A stretch of 64,000 bases of DNA, taken from contig OZ245365.1 of assembly GCA_965226495.1 (NCBI GenBank), positions 3,520,001-3,584,000 of the forward strand. Reading direction: 5' to 3'. Positions 25,590 through 39,016 of the stretch are shown piece by piece. Made by a program: the position numbers and the translations under genes. Below the pieces are notes generated by a model that saw only the letters and a program-made list of their open reading frames with translations, had not been told where the DNA came from and did no database searches. Source of the stretch: Candidatus Marinacidobacterales bacterium. GTDB taxonomy: Bacteria > Acidobacteriota > Vicinamibacteria > Marinacidobacterales > DATDRI01. Position 1 is the stretch's first letter. The number at the start of each line of letters is the position of its first letter.

Positions 25590-26612
25590 ATGCGGATCCT
25601 ACTAAGAGGTTGGGTTACGTCGATATTAGCGGCAATCTGCGTGGCGGGGTGCGTTCAAAGCGAACCAGAAGGTTCCAGCACCTCGCCTTCCGGGGAGGGG
25701 AAGTTCCTGAGCATAGGTACCGCCCCTCCCGGGGGAGCGTTCTTCGTTGTCGGCGGCGCAATCGGTGAGGTTCTCAACGAGCATCGCGGCCCGAACAACT
25801 GGGATGTGACCGCGGAGGCCACGAAAGGTTCACAAGAGAACATCCGTCGCCTTGCGACTGGCGAGCTTGAGCTCGGCTTGGCGAACTCCGCCATTACGTA
25901 TTTCGCCGTCCGCGGTGAAAGAGGCTGGGAAAAGACCTACGATATGCGCACGGTGATGACTTTGGCTTCGAACGTCGCGCTGTTTGTCACTCCTGTCGAC
26001 TCCGGAGTACGCGAGATTTCCGACTTCAAGGGAAAGCGGATCGTTGTCGGCGTAGCGGGGGCTGGCTTCGAATACTTCGTGGGACCTCTTCTAGCGGCTC
26101 ACGGTGTGACCTATGAGGACTTCAGTGCGCTCCACAACACACAAATCGGCGCAGTCGACATGCTTAGCGACGGCGCAGCAGCGGCCGCATTCCTCGGCGG
26201 CGCCGTGCCCACCGCCTCCATCACTCAAGCCTCAACGTCTCGGGACGTCCTCTTCATTCCTTACTCGGATGAAGCGAAAAAAGAGCTCGTCCGAACATAT
26301 CCATTCTTCCGTCCGGCCACGATTCCGGCCGGCACCTACCCCGGCCAGGACGAAGACTTCGACGGACTGGACGTTGGCTCCATGCACTTAATCACGAGCT
26401 CTGCCGCGGACGCAGAGTTGATCTACCAACTCACGCGCACGATTTATGAGAATCGAGACGGCGTTACCGAAAAGCACGCCGCCGGCCGGGCCATCACTCC
26501 CGGGAATGTGATTCGCGACACGGGAACGCCCTTTCACGCGGGAGCGATCAGGTACTACGAGGAGATCGGCATTTGGACCGCGGGCGTCGTTAAGAACTCC
26601 GGAAGCCCTTAA
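25590..26612 (+). CDS. TAXI family TRAP transporter solute-binding lipoprotein
   Basis: Lipobox VAG-C, IGTAPPGGAFF, TKGSQENI, PFHAGAIRYYEEIG. Confidence 0.92.
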   Translation: MRILLRGWVTSILAAICVAGCVQSEPEGSSTSPSGEGKFLSIGTAPPGGAFFVVGGAIGEVLNEHRGPNNWDVTAEATKGSQENIRRLATGELELGLANSAITYFAVRGERGWEKTYDMRTVMTLASNVALFVTPVDSGVREISDFKGKRIVVGVAGAGFEYFVGPLLAAHGVTYEDFSALHNTQIGAVDMLSDGAAAAAFLGGAVPTASITQASTSRDVLFIPYSDEAKKELVRTYPFFRPATIPAGTYPGQDEDFDGLDVGSMHLITSSAADAELIYQLTRTIYENRDGVTEKHAAGRAITPGNVIRDTGTPFHAGAIRYYEEIGIWTAGVVKNSGSP

Positions 26613-26625
26613 ACCACCCTCCTAA

Positions 26626-28581
26626 ATGTCGGCCCGGGCACGCGAAACGGTCATGCGTGTGCTCGCGTTCCTCCTCTGCGTTTTCACTCTGGCGGAAGTG
26701 AACTATCCCCGGCTTTCCCCGCAGTCGCAGTTGGCGATCTTCGCGATGCTGGGGATCGTCTGGGGTTTCCTGGCGTCGCCGATGGCCCCGCGGTGGAGCG
26801 GGACTCGGTTTTCCACCGCGGTCGACATCCTTGCCTCCTTAGCTACCACGGCCACCTGCCTCTACATCGTCGTGCAAACGGAGCCCTGGCTCCAGTCCTT
26901 CTGGTTGGACGAGCGCTCTCTGGGCGATCGCGCAGGAGCCGAGACCGCTACCGACGTCTTCATCGGGCTCGTCGGCGTCCTGCTCGTACTCGAGGCGACA
27001 CGGCGCTCCCTCGGTGTCGCACTGCCGATGCTGGCGTCGCTCTTTTTGGGGTACGCGTATTTCGGAGCTTATTTCCCGGACTGGCTCTTCCCACACCGCG
27101 GCTATTCCGCGGAGCGAATCGTCGCCCAGACGTTCCTTCATAGCCAGGGGGTCTTCGGCACCGCGCTCAAGGTGATGTTCACGTATGTTTTTCTCTTCGT
27201 TCTCTTCGGCGCCCTGCTCGAAGTGACCGGGGCGACACAGTTCATCATTGACTACGCGCAACGGATCTTTCGAGGCTCCCGGGGCGGCGCCGCCAAGGTC
27301 GCGGTCCTCGCCAGCGGACTGATGGGCTCGCTCTCTGGCAGTGCGGTCGCGAACGCGGCGACGACCGGAACCTTCACCATTCCCCTCATGCGAAGCTCAG
27401 GCTTCCGGCCCCACATCGCAGCGGGAGTGACCGCGGCGGCGAGCGCGGGCGGTGCGCTCGTTCCTCCGGTTATGGGTGCCGGTGCCTACATGATGCTCGA
27501 GATCATCGATCCTCCGGTCACCTATCTCCAGATCGTTCGCGCCGCGGTGATACCAGCGTTCCTGTTTTACTTGGCGCTCTTTCTTATCGTTCATTTCTAC
27601 GCACATCGCGTTGGCACGACCGAGCAAGTTGACACACCGCGTGGTCGCGGCAGTAACAACCGATTCGAGGGCTTCGTCTTCGTCAGCGCACTGGGGTCTT
27701 TGATCTTCTTCTTGCTCGCTGGCTACACCGTCTTTCGCGCCGTCACCCTTGCTCTCGGGGTGGTCTTCATCACCAGCTTCTTCCATCCTCGCACACGAAT
27801 CGGCCTTAAGCGCGCCGCCGACGCGATGGAAAGGGCCGCTCGTGGTGGCATTTCGCTCATCGCCGCTTCAGCGTGCGTCGGGATCATTCTCGGCGTCGTA
27901 ACGCTCACCGGCATTGGAACCAAGTTCCCGTCCTTGATCTTGCAGATGGCCGGCGATAGCCTCCCCCTCGCGTTGGTTTTGATTATGGTCGGCTCCATCG
28001 TCCTGGGCATGGGCCTGCCATCAGCCGTCTGTTATCTGCTCATGGCGACCCTCATTGGGTCGGTTCTCAACCAGTTGGAAGTTGTGCCACTCGCGGCGCA
28101 CCTTTTCATCTTCTATTTCGGAATGATGTCGATGGTGACGCCGCCGGTCGCGCTGGCGGCCTATACCACCGCTTCCATTGCCGGCGCCGGGATCATGCCG
28201 TCCGCTTTCGCTGCCTTCCGGTTCGCCCTCGTGGGCTTCACGCTTCCCTTCATGTTCGTGTTTCGGCCGGAGCTTTTGTTCATGACACCGAGCGGCGACA
28301 CCCCGGGATTAACAAGTGTGGGGATCGCGGTGACGATGGCCATTCTGGGAATCATACCTCTCGCTGCGGGCATCGCCGGCTACCTCTGGACACCCCTTTC
28401 CATTGCCACGCGAGGCGGCTTGCTACTGGCATCGGGGTTCCTCCTCTACCCCGGTCAGGACAATTTGTTGGGATTGGGCCTATCGGTGCTCAATGTTGTG
28501 GGCGCGACTCTACTGGGTATACTCGTTTTCACTCAGTGGGCTCGACGGCCGCAGCGCGGTCGGGCCGACGAGAATGGCTAG
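26626..28581 (+). CDS. TRAP transporter fused 4TM/12TM permease
   Basis: GGAAKVAV, SGSAVAN, PPVMGAGAY, LGMGLP, VTPPVALAAY. Confidence 0.93.
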   Translation: MSARARETVMRVLAFLLCVFTLAEVNYPRLSPQSQLAIFAMLGIVWGFLASPMAPRWSGTRFSTAVDILASLATTATCLYIVVQTEPWLQSFWLDERSLGDRAGAETATDVFIGLVGVLLVLEATRRSLGVALPMLASLFLGYAYFGAYFPDWLFPHRGYSAERIVAQTFLHSQGVFGTALKVMFTYVFLFVLFGALLEVTGATQFIIDYAQRIFRGSRGGAAKVAVLASGLMGSLSGSAVANAATTGTFTIPLMRSSGFRPHIAAGVTAAASAGGALVPPVMGAGAYMMLEIIDPPVTYLQIVRAAVIPAFLFYLALFLIVHFYAHRVGTTEQVDTPRGRGSNNRFEGFVFVSALGSLIFFLLAGYTVFRAVTLALGVVFITSFFHPRTRIGLKRAADAMERAARGGISLIAASACVGIILGVVTLTGIGTKFPSLILQMAGDSLPLALVLIMVGSIVLGMGLPSAVCYLLMATLIGSVLNQLEVVPLAAHLFIFYFGMMSMVTPPVALAAYTTASIAGAGIMPSAFAAFRFALVGFTLPFMFVFRPELLFMTPSGDTPGLTSVGIAVTMAILGIIPLAAGIAGYLWTPLSIATRGGLLLASGFLLYPGQDNLLGLGLSVLNVVGATLLGILVFTQWARRPQRGRADENG

Positions 28582-28672
28582 AATAGGGCCACTGCCGTCT
28601 GACGATGTCGGGTAATGGCACCGCCCTGTTTTGGGGGCCTAACAACAAACTCATCAGGAGCCCGTAAAGGTA

Positions 28673-30805
28673 ATGTTCGCTACTATCGCATTCGCTCTGG
28701 TTGTCGTGAGCGGGGCCATTTGGTGGGTGACTCTACGATTCCTCGGTGTCTATCGACGGGTTCCGGTCGAGAACTACGTCATTTGGGCGCTGGCGGCGGG
28801 TGTAGGGCTTTACGCCCTGATTCAGGAACCGTCGATCTTGAACGGTGCCGCGTTCCTGATTCCAACTGTCGTTTTGGGAGTAGCAGCTTGGTATTTGAAC
28901 ATAAGCGGCCAAGCGCGGTTTCCGAGAGACGAGCTTCGCCTCAAAGTCGGCGATCGTTTCCCTCGTTTCTCACTCCCCGACTCCCAGCGTCGACCATTCC
29001 AATCCGAAAGTCTGGAGGGGGTCAGCTCTGCACTCTATCTCTTCTACCGTGGAGACTGGTGACCCTTCTGCACGACGGAGCTGGGCCAGCTTCATAAGTT
29101 TCACGAGAAAGTCGCCGCAACCGGCGTCCAAGTCTTCGCCATCAGTGTAGATGCCCCCGACGTTTCGGAGGCGTTTCGCACCAAGGTTGGTGCCGAGTTC
29201 ACGTTCCTGTCCGACCAAGAACGAACCCTCATCGACCGGCTAAACATCAAGCACGACGACCCCTACGTGAACGCGGAGATCGCGTTCCCTACTGCGATAT
29301 TGGTCGACAAGTTCGGCATCGTCCGGTGGATTAACGCGATGCAGTATGGAAATACTCGAATGACGCCCAACGAGTTGTTCGAGGCCATCGAGCGTATGAC
29401 CCTCGAAGAACAAAACCGCGAGCTCAGAAGAGCGCGGGCGGTCAGCCAGGTGGTGCGGCAGGTCTTCTTGATGGAAAAGAGCGGTGACTTGGCGCAAGCG
29501 ATCCATGTCATGCGGGAAGAGCTCCAACGACTCGGGCTCGTTTTCTCACTATGTTCGATCACGATTTTCGATGAGGGGGCCGACGCGCTCAAAATCTACC
29601 GGGATGCAAGTGAGACCAGAGACGGTGCAGCGGTCAAGGTGCTTCCGGTATCGCCGGTATCTGATGTCCCGATTCTCCAAGACCTAGTGACGGCATGGCG
29701 GGAAACGCGCGTTTTTTGTGAGAACGTCGACATATTTGATGTTCGTTCCATCCTGAGCGTCCCATTCAGTCACGGAACCGTCGTGCTCGGCGGAACGAAG
29801 CCGGATCAGTTCGAGGAAGACGACATCCATACGCTCGAAGAGTTCGCAAAAGCCATCTCCGTCGGTTACAAACGCTTCCTCGACTTCCAAGAGCTGGATC
29901 GCCGCAACCATGAGCTCCAAGAGACGCAGTTGCAGCTCATTCAATCCGAGAAGATGGCCTCGCTCGGGCAGTTGGTGGCGGGAGTGGCCCATGAGCTCAA
30001 CACACCTATGGGAGCGATCAATAGCAACGCTCAGATCGCCGCGACTGCTTTGGCGCGGGTTCGGAAGGCCCTGGAGGACGGTCGGCTCTCCGAGGAACCG
30101 ACCCGGCGGCGCTTCTCCGAGCTCGTTGCAAACCTCGAAAATCTCAATGGGGTTAATCGAGACGCGTCGGTTCGCATGATCAGAATCGTCGACAGCCTCC
30201 GAAGCTTCGCGCGGCTCGACGAGGCGGAGTGGAAGCGCGCCGACCTGAAAGAGGGGCTCGAAGTCACACTCAGCCTCATGCAGCATGACCTCGGCAACCG
30301 TATCAAGGTCGTCAAGGACTATGGAGACCTGCCCGATGTTCCCTGCTATCCCAAGCAGCTGAATCAAGCATTCTTGAGCCTCTTGATGAACGCCGTCCAG
30401 GCTATCGATGGCAACGGGGAAGTCCGTATCCAAACTCATTGCGACGCGGCTCACGCGATTGTCAAGATTACCGACGACGGGCATGGGATCCCCGAGGAAC
30501 ACCTCGGCCGGATCTTCGATCCCGGCTTTACCACCCGCGGGGTGGGAGTCGGGACTGGCTTGGGGCTCGCGATCTCGTATCGGATTATCGAGAACCACCA
30601 AGGGACCCTCAGCGTGCAAAGCGAAGTTGGCAAAGGCTCCACTTTTACGATAGAGATACCGCTGCGCGCCGACGCGCCGCAGCCAACAAAGTTAGCTGGC
30701 AGGGTGCTGACGGATTCACGGCGCCCTGCGCGAGGAGCCATCAGCGGTCCCGAAGCCGCTCGCCGGCGAAGGGACGGCGGTGGGGGTGGGGCCCCGCCGC
30801 AGTGA
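28673..30805 (+). CDS. Membrane-anchored peroxiredoxin-like (UxxC)-GAF-histidine kinase fusion; in-frame TGA at 29060-29062 probably selenocysteine
   Basis: ORFs 28673-29062 and 29267-30805 share one frame with a single TGA in LFYRGDW*PFCTTEL; AhpC/TSA fold continues (AISVD, FLSD, PTAILVDKFGIVRW); HisKA VAHELNTP and HATPase N/G1/F/G2 boxes. Confidence 0.85.
29077..29093 (+). promoter_or_regulatory. Candidate bacterial SECIS hairpin
   Basis: GGAGCTG-GGC-CAGCTTC, 7-bp stem with one G-U pair; G-starting loop begins 21 nt after the TGA. Confidence 0.65.
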
Positions 30806-30892
30806 TGAAGGAGCGAGCCCGGCCCGAGTGGGCCGACGACGGGAAGCCGAGCGAGGAGCGAGGCGCCAAGCGCGCGAACGAAGAGTGAGCGC
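30720..30892. repeat. GC-rich REP/MITE-like element overlapping the kinase 3' end
   Basis: Shares GTGGGGGTGGGGCCCC and GAGCGAGGC motifs with 2557-2660; boundaries approximate. Confidence 0.5.
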
Positions 30893-30975
30893 GCATTGAT
30901 GCAGTTCTAAAGACCGGCCCGAAAACACGGAACTTTTGAGCGCTCAAGATCGTTTCAACCCGCGGCGGAGACATT

Positions 30976-33078
30976 ATGCTGCATAGACTTCTTGGAACTC
31001 TTCTTACTTTGTCGTTCGTGCTGTTAGTCGGCCTCATGGGTCTTGCTGAACCGGCTCAATCTGCACAGTCGAAAAGCGGCCCCCTCTTCGAAGAACCGTT
31101 GAGCCCACGCATCGCCAACTACCAGATCGACGTCAAGTTGACCCCCGAGACGCGGACCCTCGAGGGAAAGCAAGTGCTGACGTGGTACAACAAAACCGGT
31201 GAGACGATTGACGAGCTCCGATTCCATCTCTATCTCAACGCCTTTCGCAACTCTCGCACTACCTTCATGCAGGAATCGGGAGGCACGATGCGCGGCCACG
31301 CCATCGACGAAGAAGGATGGGGTTTCATCGAGGTCGACCGCTTGAGCCTATCCCAGCTCGAAGAGCGGACCGACGATCGCCTACGACTCTATCAACCAGG
31401 GGTCGGCTCTGACTGGCGCGAGGTTTTTCGAATCAACGCCGCCGCAACGGGAGCCGACCTCACCGAAGCCATGGAGTTTATCCAACCAGACGACAGCAAC
31501 GAACACGACAAGACGGTGTTCCGGGTGCCGCTACCCACGCCGCTCGCGCCGGGTGAAGGGGTGGCCCTCGACTTCGAGTTCCGAGCCCAGCTCCCGACGC
31601 CGCCTTTTGCGCGCACCGGCGCCAAGGAAGAGTACTTCTTCGTCGGCCAATGGTTTCCGAAGATCGCCGTCCACGACGGTGGAGAATGGAACGCTCACCA
31701 GTTTCACTACAACTCGGAGTTCTTCGCCGACTACGGGGTCTACGACGTGCGGATGACGGTTCCCGAAGACTTCGTACTGGGTGCGACCGGCTTGGAGGTG
31801 GAGACCATCGACAACGGCGATGGGACGACCACTCACTACTACCACGCCGAAGATGTCCATGACTTCGCCTGGACCGCGAGCCCGGAGTACCAGGTCTTCA
31901 CCGGCGAAACGCAAGATGTGAAGATCAGGGCGCTGGTACAGCCGGACCACGTCGGGCAAGGAAAACGCCATATCGAGGCCGCCAAAGTCGCGGTGAGTTT
32001 CTTCCAAGACAACTATGGCGATTACCCGTTTCCGAACTTGACGGTCGTCGATCCCCGACGAGGCGCCGGCGGTTCGGGAGGCATGGAGTACCCCACGCTC
32101 ATCACCGCCGGAACGAGATACAAGATGCCCGCCGGCATACGCATGCTCGAGAGGGTGATCACGCACGAGTTCGGACACAACTTCTGGTACCACCTCCTCG
32201 CCAGCAACGAGTTCGAGGAAGCGTGGATGGACGAGGGCATCAATACCTACACCGACGGGCAGGCCGTCGACGCTCACTACCAAGGCTACCTCATCGATTT
32301 TCTCGGATTCAAGGTCACAGATGAAGACCTGAACCGAGTAAGCTATATCCAAAGCCCAAAAGCGGACCCCGTCTATCTGAAAGCCTGGCAGTCGTACGAC
32401 CGCTCGAGCTACTGGGCAAACTCTTACTCCAAGCCGGGGCTAATCCTGAAAACGCTTCGAAATTATCTCGGCTCGGAGACGATGAACGAAGCCATGCGCG
32501 CCTACGTCGAACGGTGGCGCTTCAAGCATCCCAAGACCGAGGACTTCATCGACGTGATCAACGACGTCACGGGACAGGATCTCCATTGGTACTTCGACCA
32601 AGCGATCTATTCAAATGCAGTGCTCGACTACTCGGTAGCTTCGATGGAAAGCGAAGAGATCAAGGAGGTCGGATACGACCTCGACAAATCGGTCGAGGAG
32701 GCATGGAGCCCGCCCGAGGACAACGAAGACGAAGACTCCGGGGTGGTGGACGAAGGGCAAGACGACACGCTTTACCGGAGCGAGATCAGAATTCGCCGGT
32801 TGGGGGAGTTCAAATTCCCCACCGCGATCGAGATCGTCTTCGACGACGGCGAGACGATTCGAGAACAATGGGACGGACAGAACGCCTGGACGAAACTCAC
32901 ATTCGTAAGACCAGCAAAACTCGAATCCGCCACCGTCGACCCGGACCGAAACGTGCCGCTCGACGTGAACTACACCAACAACAGCCACACGCTTGAGCCA
33001 CAGAAGCTCGGCATCACCAAGGTTGCGACGCGCTGGATGTTCTGGTGGCAATTCATCTTGGACTTCGTAAGCCTGTAG
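30976..33078 (+). CDS. Secreted M1 family zinc aminopeptidase
   Basis: Signal peptide; GGMEYP and HEFGH...WMDEG (HEXXH-x18-E); YSKPG. Confidence 0.92.
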   Translation: MLHRLLGTLLTLSFVLLVGLMGLAEPAQSAQSKSGPLFEEPLSPRIANYQIDVKLTPETRTLEGKQVLTWYNKTGETIDELRFHLYLNAFRNSRTTFMQESGGTMRGHAIDEEGWGFIEVDRLSLSQLEERTDDRLRLYQPGVGSDWREVFRINAAATGADLTEAMEFIQPDDSNEHDKTVFRVPLPTPLAPGEGVALDFEFRAQLPTPPFARTGAKEEYFFVGQWFPKIAVHDGGEWNAHQFHYNSEFFADYGVYDVRMTVPEDFVLGATGLEVETIDNGDGTTTHYYHAEDVHDFAWTASPEYQVFTGETQDVKIRALVQPDHVGQGKRHIEAAKVAVSFFQDNYGDYPFPNLTVVDPRRGAGGSGGMEYPTLITAGTRYKMPAGIRMLERVITHEFGHNFWYHLLASNEFEEAWMDEGINTYTDGQAVDAHYQGYLIDFLGFKVTDEDLNRVSYIQSPKADPVYLKAWQSYDRSSYWANSYSKPGLILKTLRNYLGSETMNEAMRAYVERWRFKHPKTEDFIDVINDVTGQDLHWYFDQAIYSNAVLDYSVASMESEEIKEVGYDLDKSVEEAWSPPEDNEDEDSGVVDEGQDDTLYRSEIRIRRLGEFKFPTAIEIVFDDGETIREQWDGQNAWTKLTFVRPAKLESATVDPDRNVPLDVNYTNNSHTLEPQKLGITKVATRWMFWWQFILDFVSL

Positions 33079-35595: not shown

Positions 35596-37062
35596 TCAAT
35601 CGGAGAAGAACTTCTCGATCACCGATTCGCTCGGCGCACGGGTGGATAGCGACACCAGTACCAGGACCAACGAAGCCCCTAAGACGACTACCACCACGGG
35701 GAGTAGTCCGGTCTGACCAATCGTGTAGTCTCCCCCAGCGCCCAACGACTGGATAAAAAAATACGTCCACAATCCGGCCACGGTGACGATGGCCGCCATG
35801 ACGCCTTCCTTGGTGCTTCGTTTCCAAAAGAGCGCCGCCAGGACAATCGGGAACAACCCGCTGTATCCTGTTAACGACCACACACCCATGTTGAAAATGG
35901 AGCGGGTCGTGAAAAGCGACAGCAAGAACGCCGCCGCCAACAGGACCATGACAAACGATCGGCCAAACAGAACCTGCTGCCTTTCCGACAGTTTGTCGTG
36001 AAAGCCGTAGTGACGGACGATGTCCTGCGTAAACATCGTTCCGGCAGCCAGCGCCTGGGAATCGAGAGACGACATGATGGCGGCGAACACACCGGCTCCT
36101 AGGCACCCGGCGAGAACGCCGCCCGCATTGCCGAGGATGAGTTTTACGAGAATCGGACCGTCCAGTGGGGCCTGGTAGTCGATGTTGCCTACGACCCCGA
36201 GCATGACGCTGGGAACCCACACCGCCGCGACGCAAAGTGGGTAAAAGACAATGCTATAGCGAAACGATCTCGCCTCACGGGCCGATAGCCAGTGACTGAA
36301 GATATGCGGAAAGGCTCCCACCGAAAACGGAAGAAAAAGAAACGAGAACATGCGTACGTGAGTGGCCCGTTCGCTTCCGACCACGAGTAAAGACGGGTGC
36401 GTTGCACGGACCGACTCCATGGCACCCTGAAGGCCGCCGTATTTCCCCAAGATCACTAAGAAGGTGATGCCGCCCACGATCATGAAAACGAGCGTTTGGA
36501 ATGTGTTCGCCCATGCCGTGCTGCGCATGCCTCCATAGGTGACGTAAACGAAGACCACGCTGCAGATGAGCAAGCTGCCGATCCAGGAATCGACACCCTC
36601 TCCCGCTCCGCCGGTGATGGCTTGCAGCGCGTCGCCTCCTCCTTTCACGCCGATCAAAACGTATGGAAGCATGAGGGAAACCAACACGACGAAGAGCATC
36701 AGCCCCAAGGTATCGGACTCGTACCTTTCCCGAAAGAATTGAACCTGTGTCAGATACCCTTCCTTCTTACCCAGCCACCACAAGCGCGTCCCGACGAAGT
36801 AAAAAACCAATGGAAGCATTATTGCGGAGCTCGAACCCATCAAGGCGAAGACGATGATGCCTTCCCGATACGCTTGACCGGAAGCTCCCAACATCGTGAA
36901 GGCGGTCATGTTGGTTCCGAAAAGAGTCATCAACAGGACAAAAGGGCCAATGGTGCGGCTTGCCAAGAAGTAATCCTCGCCGGTGCCGCGGAATGAGCGA
37001 TGCGCCAGCATGCCAACGAACAGCACCAGAGTGAGGTAGGCGAGGATGACTCCGAGGATCAT
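35596..37062 (-). CDS. Sodium:solute symporter family protein
   Basis: EDYFLASR, YVTYGGMRSTAWANTFQ, FAAIMSSLDSQ, many TM segments. Confidence 0.92.
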   Translation of the reverse strand: MILGVILAYLTLVLFVGMLAHRSFRGTGEDYFLASRTIGPFVLLMTLFGTNMTAFTMLGASGQAYREGIIVFALMGSSSAIMLPLVFYFVGTRLWWLGKKEGYLTQVQFFRERYESDTLGLMLFVVLVSLMLPYVLIGVKGGGDALQAITGGAGEGVDSWIGSLLICSVVFVYVTYGGMRSTAWANTFQTLVFMIVGGITFLVILGKYGGLQGAMESVRATHPSLLVVGSERATHVRMFSFLFLPFSVGAFPHIFSHWLSAREARSFRYSIVFYPLCVAAVWVPSVMLGVVGNIDYQAPLDGPILVKLILGNAGGVLAGCLGAGVFAAIMSSLDSQALAAGTMFTQDIVRHYGFHDKLSERQQVLFGRSFVMVLLAAAFLLSLFTTRSIFNMGVWSLTGYSGLFPIVLAALFWKRSTKEGVMAAIVTVAGLWTYFFIQSLGAGGDYTIGQTGLLPVVVVVLGASLVLVLVSLSTRAPSESVIEKFFSD

Positions 37063-37616: not shown

Positions 37617-39016
37617 GGTGATGTCTTAAGATTCCTGTCAAAGAAAAACGATGTATGGTTCCCCAAGCTCAAACCCGTCCCCGTCATGGGGACAGAAAAG
37701 GAGAACCATACATCATGGGAAAGGTACTACCGAGTCAGCGATTGCTCAAGCAGTTCGAGGAACAACTGGTATTTGGGGAGATGAATCTCTCGGAGATCGT
37801 CCGGTCGGGAGCTCAGATGATGCTTCAATATGCGTTGGAGCGCGAGGTGACGGAGGCGTTGGGTCGAAACTACTATGAGAACGCTCCGGCAACGACGAAG
37901 GAGAAGGGACGACGCAACGGGTATGAGTCGCATCGGGTCCTCACGGGCGAGGGAGCGGTGACGGTGCAAGTGCCGCGGGTACGAGAAACAGAGAAGGTGT
38001 TTCAGTCAAAGATTCTCGACGCCTACGTGAGCCGGACCGAGAAACTCGATGAACTGATCGCGCGGATGTACGTCCACGGGATGTCGACGCGTGACATTGA
38101 GGCGACGTTCGCGGACGTGCTGAGCGGCACGGGTGTCTCGAAGTCGGTGGTGAGCCGGGTCACACGGTGTCTGTCGGAGGATTTCGAGGCGTTTCGAAAA
38201 CGGGATCTCTCGAACGAGAAGCTGTTGTATCTCGAGCTCGACGGCACGTACCTGCGCTACCACCAAGGAGCGGAGAGGAAAGAGCCCATCCTCGTTGCGA
38301 CCGGCTATCGCGCTGATGGGACGCGAGTTCTTCTTCATATCGGTGTCGGCAACCGAGAATCCTACGAGAACTGGAAGGGGTTCTTGCAGGAGATGGTGGC
38401 CCGAGGAATGAGGGAGCCGTTGCTCATCGTGACGGACGGGAATCCTGGAGTGCTCAAAGCGATCGCAGAGGTCTTCCCTCGAAGCCTCAAGCAACGTTGC
38501 CAGAAGCACCGCCTCGAGAACATCCTGGGCAAGGCTCCGAAGGAAGTGCGCGACGAACTCAAGGCGGCCATCCTTGAGTCGTTCCATGCGAACAGCTACG
38601 AGCAAGGGCTGAAGAAGGGTCGGGAGGTGATCGCTCGGTACCGTCAACGATTCCCGAGCGCGATGAAGTGCATGGAAGAGACCCTCGAAGCGTGTCTTCA
38701 GGCGCTACGCCTTCCTGCGGCGCATCACAAAAGGCTTCGCACGTCGAATCTACTTGAGCGCACGTTCGGAGAGCACAAACGTCGCACAAAGGTCATTCCT
38801 CACTTCTTCACCGAGGAGGCCGCGATGAAACTCTCGTTCGCTGTGCTCTTGGCCGTCGCAAACAAATGGCGCGGCGTGAGGATGGATGTCTTCGCCGCTA
38901 GGAAAGTCGAGGAGCTTCGCAACGAGCTTCTCCCGCAAGGCACGTCGGAGGAATCAGCAGCTTAACCGAGCGCGGGGAACCGTACGGAGATTTGACAGGA
39001 AAATTAAGACTTGACC
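37617..39016 (+). mobile_element. IS256 family insertion sequence, 1400 bp
   Basis: 26-bp imperfect TIRs (GGTGATGTCTTAAGATTCCTGTCAAA vs GGTCAAGTCTTAATTTTCCTGTCAAA, 22/26); 8-bp TSD CTCGCTGT at 37609-37616 and 39017-39024. Confidence 0.95.
37715..38965 (+). CDS. IS256 family DDE transposase
   Basis: RRNGY, GMSTRDI, YLELDG, IVTDG, QRCQKH, RTSNLLER; AAGGAG RBS before ATG 37715. Confidence 0.95.
   Translation: MGKVLPSQRLLKQFEEQLVFGEMNLSEIVRSGAQMMLQYALEREVTEALGRNYYENAPATTKEKGRRNGYESHRVLTGEGAVTVQVPRVRETEKVFQSKILDAYVSRTEKLDELIARMYVHGMSTRDIEATFADVLSGTGVSKSVVSRVTRCLSEDFEAFRKRDLSNEKLLYLELDGTYLRYHQGAERKEPILVATGYRADGTRVLLHIGVGNRESYENWKGFLQEMVARGMREPLLIVTDGNPGVLKAIAEVFPRSLKQRCQKHRLENILGKAPKEVRDELKAAILESFHANSYEQGLKKGREVIARYRQRFPSAMKCMEETLEACLQALRLPAAHHKRLRTSNLLERTFGEHKRRTKVIPHFFTEEAAMKLSFAVLLAVANKWRGVRMDVFAARKVEELRNELLPQGTSEESAA

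Follow-up and report, generated by a model that had tools for sequence, protein, structure and literature searches.

In the window, that is, the whole 64,000-nucleotide (nt) stretch analyzed here (positions 3,520,001 to 3,584,000 of contig OZ245365.1 of a Candidatus Marinacidobacterales bacterium), the gene at 28673–30805 carries one in-frame TGA codon and very probably encodes a real selenoprotein, namely a histidine kinase in which a redoxin domain with a selenocysteine (Sec)-first UxxC motif precedes a GAF fold and the kinase core. This conclusion is carried by the conservation of the TGA among orthologues, by protein-coding constraint on both sides of it, by a hairpin just downstream, and by the Sec machinery of the genome. 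The fuller reading, by which the product is one 710-residue inner-membrane histidine kinase that uses UGA130 as Sec and is controlled by a redox switch, is given a little better than an even chance.

The first-pass annotation, which was made from the letters alone, had proposed that two open reading frames (ORFs), 28673–29062 (129 aa) and 29267–30805 (512 aa), are a single frame broken only by a TGA. This was borne out: the two ORFs join in one frame, and the read-through product of 710 aa is terminated by the TGA at 30803–30805. The internal TGA stands in the context GGAGACTGG-TGA-CCCTTCTGC (G-D-W-U-P-F-C), and translation with TGA as U gives GDW-U-PFCTTELGQLHK as the Sec-site peptide of the kinase. 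The elements on which the Sec reading turns are as follows.

28673–30805, plus strand: entire coding sequence of 710 codons and a stop, in which one in-frame TGA is read as Sec.
29060–29062, plus strand: TGA read as Sec130, with which the U-P-F-C motif opens; TGA in 13/13 aligned orthologues, without variant in four public sequencing runs.
29069–29071, plus strand: TGC, Cys133, second residue of UxxC; invariant in the 13-sequence alignment (TGC in 13/13) and aligned with the peroxidatic Cys of BCP peroxiredoxins.
29077–29093, plus strand: hairpin resembling a selenocysteine insertion sequence (SECIS), GGAGCUG-GGC-CAGCUUC, with seven pairs and the loop GGC, beginning 15 nt after the UGA.

In the deposited annotation of the 6,337,479-base contig, only a 488-aa C-terminal product is found at the kinase locus, and in a collection of 5.8 billion proteins all 69 orthologue clusters start at or after residue 131, thus lacking at least the N-terminal 130 residues, with predicted internal starts that vary between orthologues. 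The mis-splitting by gene callers that had been foreseen is therefore what the databases hold.

To assess the conservation of the TGA, 13 intact full-length sequences were aligned, whose orthologues are 47–55% identical to the window protein and whose mean column identity is 61%. U130, F132, C133, C294 and H440 were invariant in this alignment. The TGA occupied the same column in 15/15 loci examined, the window's own genome included, within the motif YRGx(W/F)-U-(P/L)FC, and the copies of two further genomes (G454 and G001) bring the number to 17; the 47–55% identity of the TGA-bearing orthologues holds outside the genus. In a six-frame search, the redoxin–GAF part was found in 21/55 genomes of the order, so the same fusion, for which a search in related genomes had been suggested, does occur in them, and the TGA lay inside the match in 19/19 of those whose match covers the Sec column (G002 and G003 are without that part). 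A Cys form of the fusion was found in none of the 69 orthologue clusters, the 55 genomes of the order, or 400 other genomes of the phylum. The alignment check suggested at the outset, with Cys or TGA at this column taken as support, thus gave TGA in the 17 copies of the fusion and Cys in 75 homologue loci.

The codon-position pattern, given as the fraction of sites that differ, was compared with the 12 orthologues on the two sides of the TGA.

aa 80–129, before the TGA: differing codon positions 1/2/3 of 0.34/0.23/0.63.
aa 131–198, after the TGA: differing codon positions 1/2/3 of 0.29/0.24/0.60.
Kinase core: differing codon positions 1/2/3 of 0.34/0.25/0.60.

The patterns are equal on either side, and therefore protein-coding constraint runs straight through the TGA, including 68 codons that would be untranslated under a two-gene model. 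Further, the region of aa 85–300, which covers the redoxin, the connecting helix and the start of the GAF fold, had a mean column identity of 74% vs. 61% for the whole protein. In public sequence data, contigs of four runs, which belong to four studies, showed no other letter at 29060–29062, so that the TGC, TGT or TGG named by the first-pass annotation as contrary evidence was absent from them, and one public contig covers 28673–29200 with 0 differences; one of the four runs may be the source sample and hence may not be independent.

The genome, assembled as one contig of 6.34 Mb with a completeness of 94.8%, was searched for selA, selB, selC and selD, whose presence had been put forward as a check of the Sec reading. 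All four were present above curated cut-offs, with selA at 570 bits, selB at 377.7 bits, tRNA-Sec with the anticodon tca (UCA) at 70.9 bits, and selD at 332.6 bits (L001, G000:C1:5697778-5698710). The selD gene carries its own in-frame TGA in a SAG-U-ASK motif and is thus itself a selenoprotein gene, and selA exceeded its cut-off in 54/55 genomes of the order. Two stand-alone AhpC-TSA paralogues with TGA at the UxxC column, L079 (G000:C1:1156213-1156215, minus strand) and L080 (G000:C1:2426820-2426822), have the motifs W-U-P-Y-C and W-U-P-F-C and are further selenoproteins of the same genome. By eye, the N-termini of these paralogues resemble signal peptides.

The SECIS-like hairpin spans nt 18–34 counted from the U of the UGA, and both stand-alone UxxC paralogues have a 7-bp hairpin at nt 18–34, in exactly the same register, with different peptides encoded. 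In an alignment of 17 sequences (15 kinase orthologues and the two paralogues), three of the seven pairs were changed on both sides, and 80.7% of the cells could pair, vs. 26–56% when the 3′ partner was slid by 1–3 columns. The covariation score was 0.097 vs. 0.033 in shuffles and was reached by 1/500 of them. A contiguous stem of at least 5 pairs starting at nt 16–21 was present in 17/17 Sec forms vs. 12/75 Cys homologues. The fold of 29040–29130 alone was no more stable than shuffles (z = -0.34), and stability is therefore not evidence for the hairpin. Bacterial SECIS elements have a G in the apical loop and, according to the bSECISearch spacing rule, about 16–37 nt from the UGA to the loop; the hairpin found here fits on both counts and is a candidate element for SelB.

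From N- to C-terminus, the read-through product comprises three transmembrane (TM) helices, the AhpC/TSA redoxin that bears W-U-P-F-C, the long connecting helix, the GAF fold, HisKA and HATPase_c, with the following limits.

28676–28903, plus strand: three TM helices (aa 2–23, 32–51 and 55–77), by DSSP on the AlphaFold model.
28946–29329, plus strand: AhpC/TSA redoxin domain (thioredoxin-fold, PRX-like), aa 92–219; PF00578 at 3.1e-26 and 92.2 bits (cut-off 26), PF08534 at 2.1e-17.
29366–29467, plus strand: long connecting helix, aa 232–265, with an invariant LxEQNREL motif, from the structure models.
29480–29917, plus strand: GAF-fold domain, aa 270–415, from the model and Foldseek; invariant Cys294 at 29552–29554.
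29963–30223, plus strand: HisKA/DHp domain (PF00512; aa 431–517 by Pfam), with the phospho-acceptor His440 at 29990–29992 and an invariant H-box VAHELNTP.
30350–30667, plus strand: HATPase_c catalytic domain, aa 560–665; PF02518 at 1e-24.

PF00578 and PF08534 were both matched in 13/13 orthologues, and HisKA and HATPase_c were above the Pfam cut-offs. In HATPase_c, residues N573, D601, G603, G605, F615 and G625–G631 were invariant in the 13-sequence alignment; they are presumably the N, G1, F and G2 boxes. Together with the invariant H440, they fit a catalytically competent kinase core. The AlphaFold model of the whole protein, built from 13 sequences, had a mean predicted local distance difference test (pLDDT) of 73.4 and a predicted template modelling score (pTM) of 0.45; it placed three N-terminal helices, a thioredoxin-type alpha/beta domain, the helix 232–265, a second alpha/beta domain, two DHp helices and the ATPase in this order, and its best PDB matches were kinase cores (ZraS, HK853) and sensor-kinase assemblies. 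Pfam GAF_2 at 272–396 scored only 22.6 bits, below the cut-off of 28.6, and reached E ≤ 0.01 in only 4/13 orthologues. A separate model of aa 232–420, with a pLDDT of 84.8 and a pTM of 0.78, had GAF entries (6ob8, the PDE6 GAF 6x88, and 3ci6; E 3e-7 to 1e-5, TMq about 0.6) as the top PDB matches listed by Foldseek, and aa 270–415 are therefore assigned a GAF fold despite the sub-threshold GAF_2 score.

Hence the parts read by the first-pass annotation from the letters alone were recovered: the three N-terminal TM segments as helices 2–23, 32–51 and 55–77 of the AlphaFold model, the full thioredoxin-fold AhpC/TSA-like domain with UxxC (PF00578, 3.1e-26), the GAF-like domain as a GAF fold by Foldseek of the aa 232–420 model, and the complete kinase core with the H-box VAHELNTP, both of its domains over the cut-offs and its boxes invariant; likewise, no TM segment was found between redoxin and kinase. 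Of the loops joining the TM helices, loop 1 shows strong conservation (YRRxPxE) and holds 3–5 Lys/Arg in 13/13 orthologues, and loop 2 holds 0–1. By the positive-inside rule, and with an ATP-dependent kinase core downstream without further TM segment, the N-terminus would lie outside and the C-terminus inside. The redoxin domain is likewise predicted to be cytoplasmic, because no hydrophobic segment separates it from the ATP-dependent kinase.

The best solved relatives of the redoxin domain were the BCP-type peroxiredoxins 2ywn and 2cx3. In the alignment to them, C133 corresponds to the peroxidatic Cys, and in the PxxxTxxC motif Arg126 replaces the Pro and Sec130 the catalytic Thr, while Pro206, the same residue in all 13 orthologues, stands at the position of the catalytic Arg of peroxiredoxins. 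On the N-terminal module, none of the NCBIfam models reached its cut-off, and the peroxiredoxin models among them did not come near theirs. Because the catalytic Thr and Arg are missing, the domain is not a true, classical peroxiredoxin; judged from the sequence, it is a thioredoxin-like UxxC center on a peroxiredoxin scaffold. The earlier label of peroxiredoxin-like thus stands for the fold and falls for classical peroxidase chemistry, with Sec in place of Thr and Pro in place of Arg.

The redoxin domain is a member of a very widespread FYRGxWCPFC family. A scan of named genomes with a pattern that demanded Cys at the column, so that the count is biased to Cys forms, returned 75 Cys-form loci with FYRGxWCPFC from many phyla, none of them contiguous with a GAF-kinase. 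Five fusion loci appeared in the same scan, under the titles Candidatus Marinacidobacterales, Vicinamibacteria or Acidobacteria bacterium. Relatives of the N-terminal module were also collected by a profile search against 1.84 billion representatives. The closest relatives of aa 1–241 were stand-alone proteins of 226–263 aa with hydrophobic N-terminal segments (three by eye) followed by a redoxin with Cys at the column, among them P0079 (237 aa) and P0080 (226 aa, source name 'peroxiredoxin'), both at E about 1e-52 and with FYRG(D/G)WCPFC. On the profile, these 3TM-redoxin proteins stop at position 157 (about aa 241), and the repeats of multi-GAF kinases, in which the helix and the GAF start were matched, set in at position 159 (about aa 243); for example, P0081 (2192 aa) is a multi-GAF histidine kinase by Pfam, with nine matched stretches. 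The fusion is therefore explained as a junction of two older modules at about aa 242. Giant proteins of 1,100–3,900 aa (P0081, P0083, P0086, P0092 and others) matched aa 243–300 in 4–16 separate stretches.

A maximum-likelihood tree was built from 75 redoxin domains, namely 13 of the kinase, the best 60 of 101 qualifying hits (41 lower-scoring rows being left out), and the two paralogues. The redoxin domains of the kinase formed one clade (support 100/99), which was sister to P0079 plus P0080 (96/88), and both fell inside a TM-anchored group (91/85). The two Sec paralogues of the genome stood on the other side of the tree from the kinase domain, which was placed beside Cys forms. The nearest visible relatives of the kinase redoxin are thus Cys forms; any Sec forms of the stand-alone 3TM type would escape notice in protein databases, since gene calling cuts them short. 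Two further proteins, P0152 (512 aa) and P0165 (553 aa), combine a multi-TM anchor, a redoxin with FxRGNWCP(F/L)C, a helical linker and a class III adenylate/guanylate cyclase domain, with no Pfam-detected GAF between redoxin and cyclase; they belong to a related TM-anchored clade, separate from that of the kinase.

On these grounds a mechanism may be proposed. SelA, SelB, SelD and tRNA-Sec would act on the hairpin 15 nt after the UGA, giving a protein whose first module is a three-helix anchor with a cytoplasmic PRX-like U-P-F-C domain and whose second is the helix–GAF–DHp–CA kinase. The U130 selenol would react with an oxidant or with a disulfide/thiol partner, and a selenenylsulfide would close between U130 and C133. 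The redoxin would change as a result, and this change could be relayed via the helix aa 232–265 (LxEQNREL) and the GAF fold to the DHp four-helix bundle, where the autophosphorylation of H440 would be altered, and with it the signal to a response regulator encoded elsewhere. We thus infer redox control of the kinase activity. The redoxin module would be an input domain; apart from the architecture, the main support for this is that one kind of module precedes two different signaling outputs, kinase and cyclase, as is typical of input domains. UGA130 precedes every signaling domain, and therefore synthesis of the full-length sensor would depend on the selenium supply and Sec-tRNA. A broader generalization, offered tentatively and with less than even confidence, is that the TM-anchored PRX-like CxxC/UxxC module is an unrecognized class of cytoplasmic input domain that was recruited independently by kinases and cyclases, with Sec as the nucleophile in Marinacidobacterales, where the amount of sensor would report selenium supply.

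The distribution of the fusion was restricted. With the window's genome not counted, it was found in 5/7 genomes of family f1, 15/19 of f2 and 0/28 of f3, and it was not found in the 400 other genomes sampled across the phylum (E ≤ 1e-30), so that every fusion seen came from one order and, within it, from two families (titles Candidatus Marinacidobacterales/Vicinamibacteria). An unpublished genome, G007, enters the denominators only, with no fusion found and no selA match. Disrupted or partial copies were seen in the following genomes.

G002 (L027, same genus): frame-breaking deletion of 221 nt, by which codons ~77–149 including the Sec codon are lost.
G001 (L028, same genus): TGA kept, with a 1-nt insertion some 100 nt downstream of it.
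G003: copy only partial.
G016, G022 and G453: a frameshift in each.
G026: copy interrupted.
G018: N-terminus fails to align.

In addition, the extreme C-terminus of G004, one of the 13 aligned full-length sequences, is divergent. All 8 disrupted copies are in assemblies of at most 30 contigs, and 11/13 intact ones in assemblies of 40–960 contigs, the exceptions being the window's genome (1 contig) and G008 (2 contigs). The confinement of the disrupted copies to few-contig assemblies suggests long-read indel errors, while the 221-nt deletion of G002 is probably real.

Upstream of the kinase gene lies a TAXI-family TRAP transporter (25590–28581, plus strand), made up of an NMT1_3 solute-binding protein and a permease of 651 aa that matches DctM, which ends 91 nt before the kinase start; downstream is an M1 peptidase ORF (30976–33078). 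This synteny does not reach beyond the genus, in which the other two genomes keep it, although the peptidase is shared by G003; it offers no functional lead. In most family-f2 genomes examined (L071–L078), the kinase gene lies between SSF symporter and DUF1028 genes on the same strand; a homologous SSF gene occurs in the window at 35596–37062, about 5 kb away and on the opposite strand. No sigma-70-like promoter was found at 28300–31200, a result within shuffle expectation, and the one terminator-like site there, on the opposite strand, is within shuffle expectation as well. At gathering thresholds, Rfam gave no match in the window. A 92-nt tRNA-Gly(acc) reported by ARAGORN at 32738–32829 (plus strand) inside the M1 peptidase ORF is a probable false positive, as Rfam has no tRNA there.

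The 3′ end of the gene is overlapped by a repeat.

30695–30904, strand not assigned: copy of a dispersed repeat of about 190–210 nt, reaching over the final ~37 codons of the kinase gene and its stop codon.

This repeat gave 74 blastn hits in the genome, self included, with up to 94% identity, and the depth of public contigs at 30689–30805 was 10–25 times that of the neighboring sequence in four runs. The C-terminal tail of the kinase is Arg/Gly-rich and unalignable with the orthologues; the overlap of the dispersed repeat with the gene end accounts for this non-conserved tail, and the repeat probably replaced the original 3′ end of the gene. A Mutator-family transposase gene (PF00872, 2e-77), an insertion sequence near the locus, is located at 37655–38965 (plus strand).

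Several observations weigh against the redox-switched selenoprotein kinase as proposed. The 15 orthologues are kin and not independent samples, Sec insertion is an inference, and no RNA run was listed for the gene. When RNAalifold was applied to the 15 kinase orthologues alone, it returned a 5-bp invariant stem, GAGCU/AGCUC, with 0 compensatory pairs, and covariation was seen only after adding the two paralogues; the hairpin moreover overlaps the conserved peptide E-L-G-Q-L, so that coding constraint explains part of its conservation, and the stem of the kinase orthologues is by itself weak evidence. The absence of the catalytic Thr and Arg means that reactivity toward peroxide would not be predicted by homology, and the pTM of 0.45 makes the contacts between redoxin, GAF and DHp in the full-length model unreliable. 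Disrupted or partial copies make up 8 of the 21 matching genomes and include both other genomes of the same genus (G001 and G002). The neighbors are transporters and peptidases, with no redox genes; no response regulator was found within about 10 kb on either side (ORFs at 17.6–43.8 kb of the window), nor among the conserved neighbors in 10 relatives, orphan regulators elsewhere in the genome lying outside this search.

Part of this evidence leads to a different view of the protein, which we regard as possible but rather doubtful, namely that it is a real selenoprotein kinase whose redoxin is not the sensor. The redoxin would then be a tethered thiol/selenol oxidoreductase that, for instance, keeps a partner or Cys294 of the GAF reduced, or handles a selenium or sulfur compound, and the GAF or the membrane helices would bind the signal. 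The well-supported GAF fold with its invariant C294, W342 and PFxHG motif, which also speaks against a redoxin sensor, agrees with this view, as do the strongly conserved YRRxPxE loop, the incomplete peroxiredoxin triad, and the neighbors (TAXI-TRAP and M1 peptidase; SSF and DUF1028 in f2), which point to a nutrient rather than a redox context. However, in P0152 and P0165 the redoxin is the only Pfam-recognized candidate input before the cyclase, and in the kinase aa 85–300 are among the best conserved residues (74% vs. 61% mean column identity).

It is improbable that UGA130 is mainly or only a stop, giving a 129-residue membrane peptide and a soluble kinase from the GTG at 29267 or from the annotated 488-aa start, with the redoxin not intact. 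This is exactly what gene callers and the deposited annotation predict, and in the one bacterial system measured, UGA recoding was reported to be only partly efficient (30–40%; PMC4513850). In contrast, amino-acid and codon-position conservation is unbroken through aa 80–198, the 68 otherwise untranslated codons included, the internal starts differ among orthologues, and both the hairpin and the Sec machinery are present. Half a thioredoxin fold would also not be expected to be conserved in the way seen here, with an invariant FYRGxW-TGA-xFC at 47–55% overall identity. Finally, that the TGA is a pseudogenizing mutation or an assembly error in a former Cys kinase, for which the frameshifts or deletions in several relatives and the single contig of the genome, taken as a sign of an error-prone long-read assembly, might speak, is very improbable, given the same TGA in 17 directly checked copies from two families, no Cys form among the 69 orthologue clusters or the genomes searched, contigs from four studies without variant, and the concentration of the disruptions in assemblies of at most 30 contigs, which would fit long-read indel errors.

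The redox-switched Sec kinase therefore remains the reading followed here. What was known before is the redoxin selenoprotein family and histidine kinases with GAF inputs; new with respect to the literature searched are the fusion itself, the fact that it is conserved in an obligate Sec form, and a TM-anchored redoxin as proposed signaling input, and nothing relevant to a redoxin–kinase fusion was found in that literature. The accessible part of a 2026 review of prokaryotic selenoproteins lists no signaling protein and does not contain 'two-component', 'sensor' or 'signal transduction' (PMC13188914). A preprint, in its accessible part, names 'a histidine kinase' among unverified SECIS-based predictions from marine deltaproteobacteria (10.1101/2021.03.15.435355), which may bear on priority. 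The initial statement that no Sec-containing sensor kinase has been characterized accordingly agrees with the literature searched, where that preprint, as far as accessible, offers an unverified prediction only.

With few exceptions, the selenoproteins known from prokaryotes are enzymes of redox chemistry or metabolism, and a conserved Sec sensor kinase would bring selenium biology to signal transduction. If the proposal is true, this would be the first two-component sensor with a selenol/selenenylsulfide switch as its sensing chemistry, and a single protein would link the redox state to the selenium status. It would also be a natural system in which to compare selenol and thiol in a sensor with respect to speed, reversibility and resistance to over-oxidation. 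Further, these results point to an input domain with a thioredoxin fold, serving kinases as well as cyclases, that is undescribed in the literature searched. Sensor inventories of these marine Acidobacteriota are wrong at the kinase locus, because gene callers systematically truncate the family.

Among the known systems close to the kinase are the Prx-like thiol:disulfide oxidoreductase selenoproteins (PF00578, UxxC), which the accessible part of the review describes as 'predicted with high confidence' (PMC13188914), and which correspond to 'Prx-like 1' in the accessible part of the Global Ocean Sampling survey (PMC2398784). They share with the kinase the Pfam family, the Sec-first UxxC, Cys homologues with WCPxC, and a hairpin just downstream. 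However, they are small and stand-alone, whereas the kinase redoxin would be cytoplasmic, is anchored by three TM helices and is fused to GAF–HisKA–HATPase_c. The stand-alone 3TM plus PRX-like (CxxC) proteins P0079 and P0080 are like aa 1–241 of the kinase, but have Cys for Sec and end where the connecting helix begins. The BCP/PrxQ peroxiredoxins (2ywn and 2cx3) have the thioredoxin fold and the position of Cys133 in common with the kinase redoxin, and differ from it by the motif Pro and Thr and the catalytic Arg, in whose places the kinase has Arg126, Sec130 and Pro206. The cyclase fusions P0152 and P0165 likewise join a multi-TM anchor and a redoxin to the output through a helical linker, but they are Cys forms with a cyclase output and no Pfam-detected GAF.

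The thiol-based redox histidine kinases ArcB, RegB/PrrB, SrrB and AccS, and heme/thiol GAF kinases such as MsmS, are what we take to be the appropriate comparison among sensors. Kinases of this type rely on cofactors or on single cysteines located in their PAS, DHp or CA domains. To our knowledge, none of them has a dedicated thioredoxin-fold CxxC/UxxC input domain or selenocysteine. What they have in common with the kinase described here is the class I HisKA type and a proposed switching by oxidation of a chalcogen center in a cytoplasmic domain.

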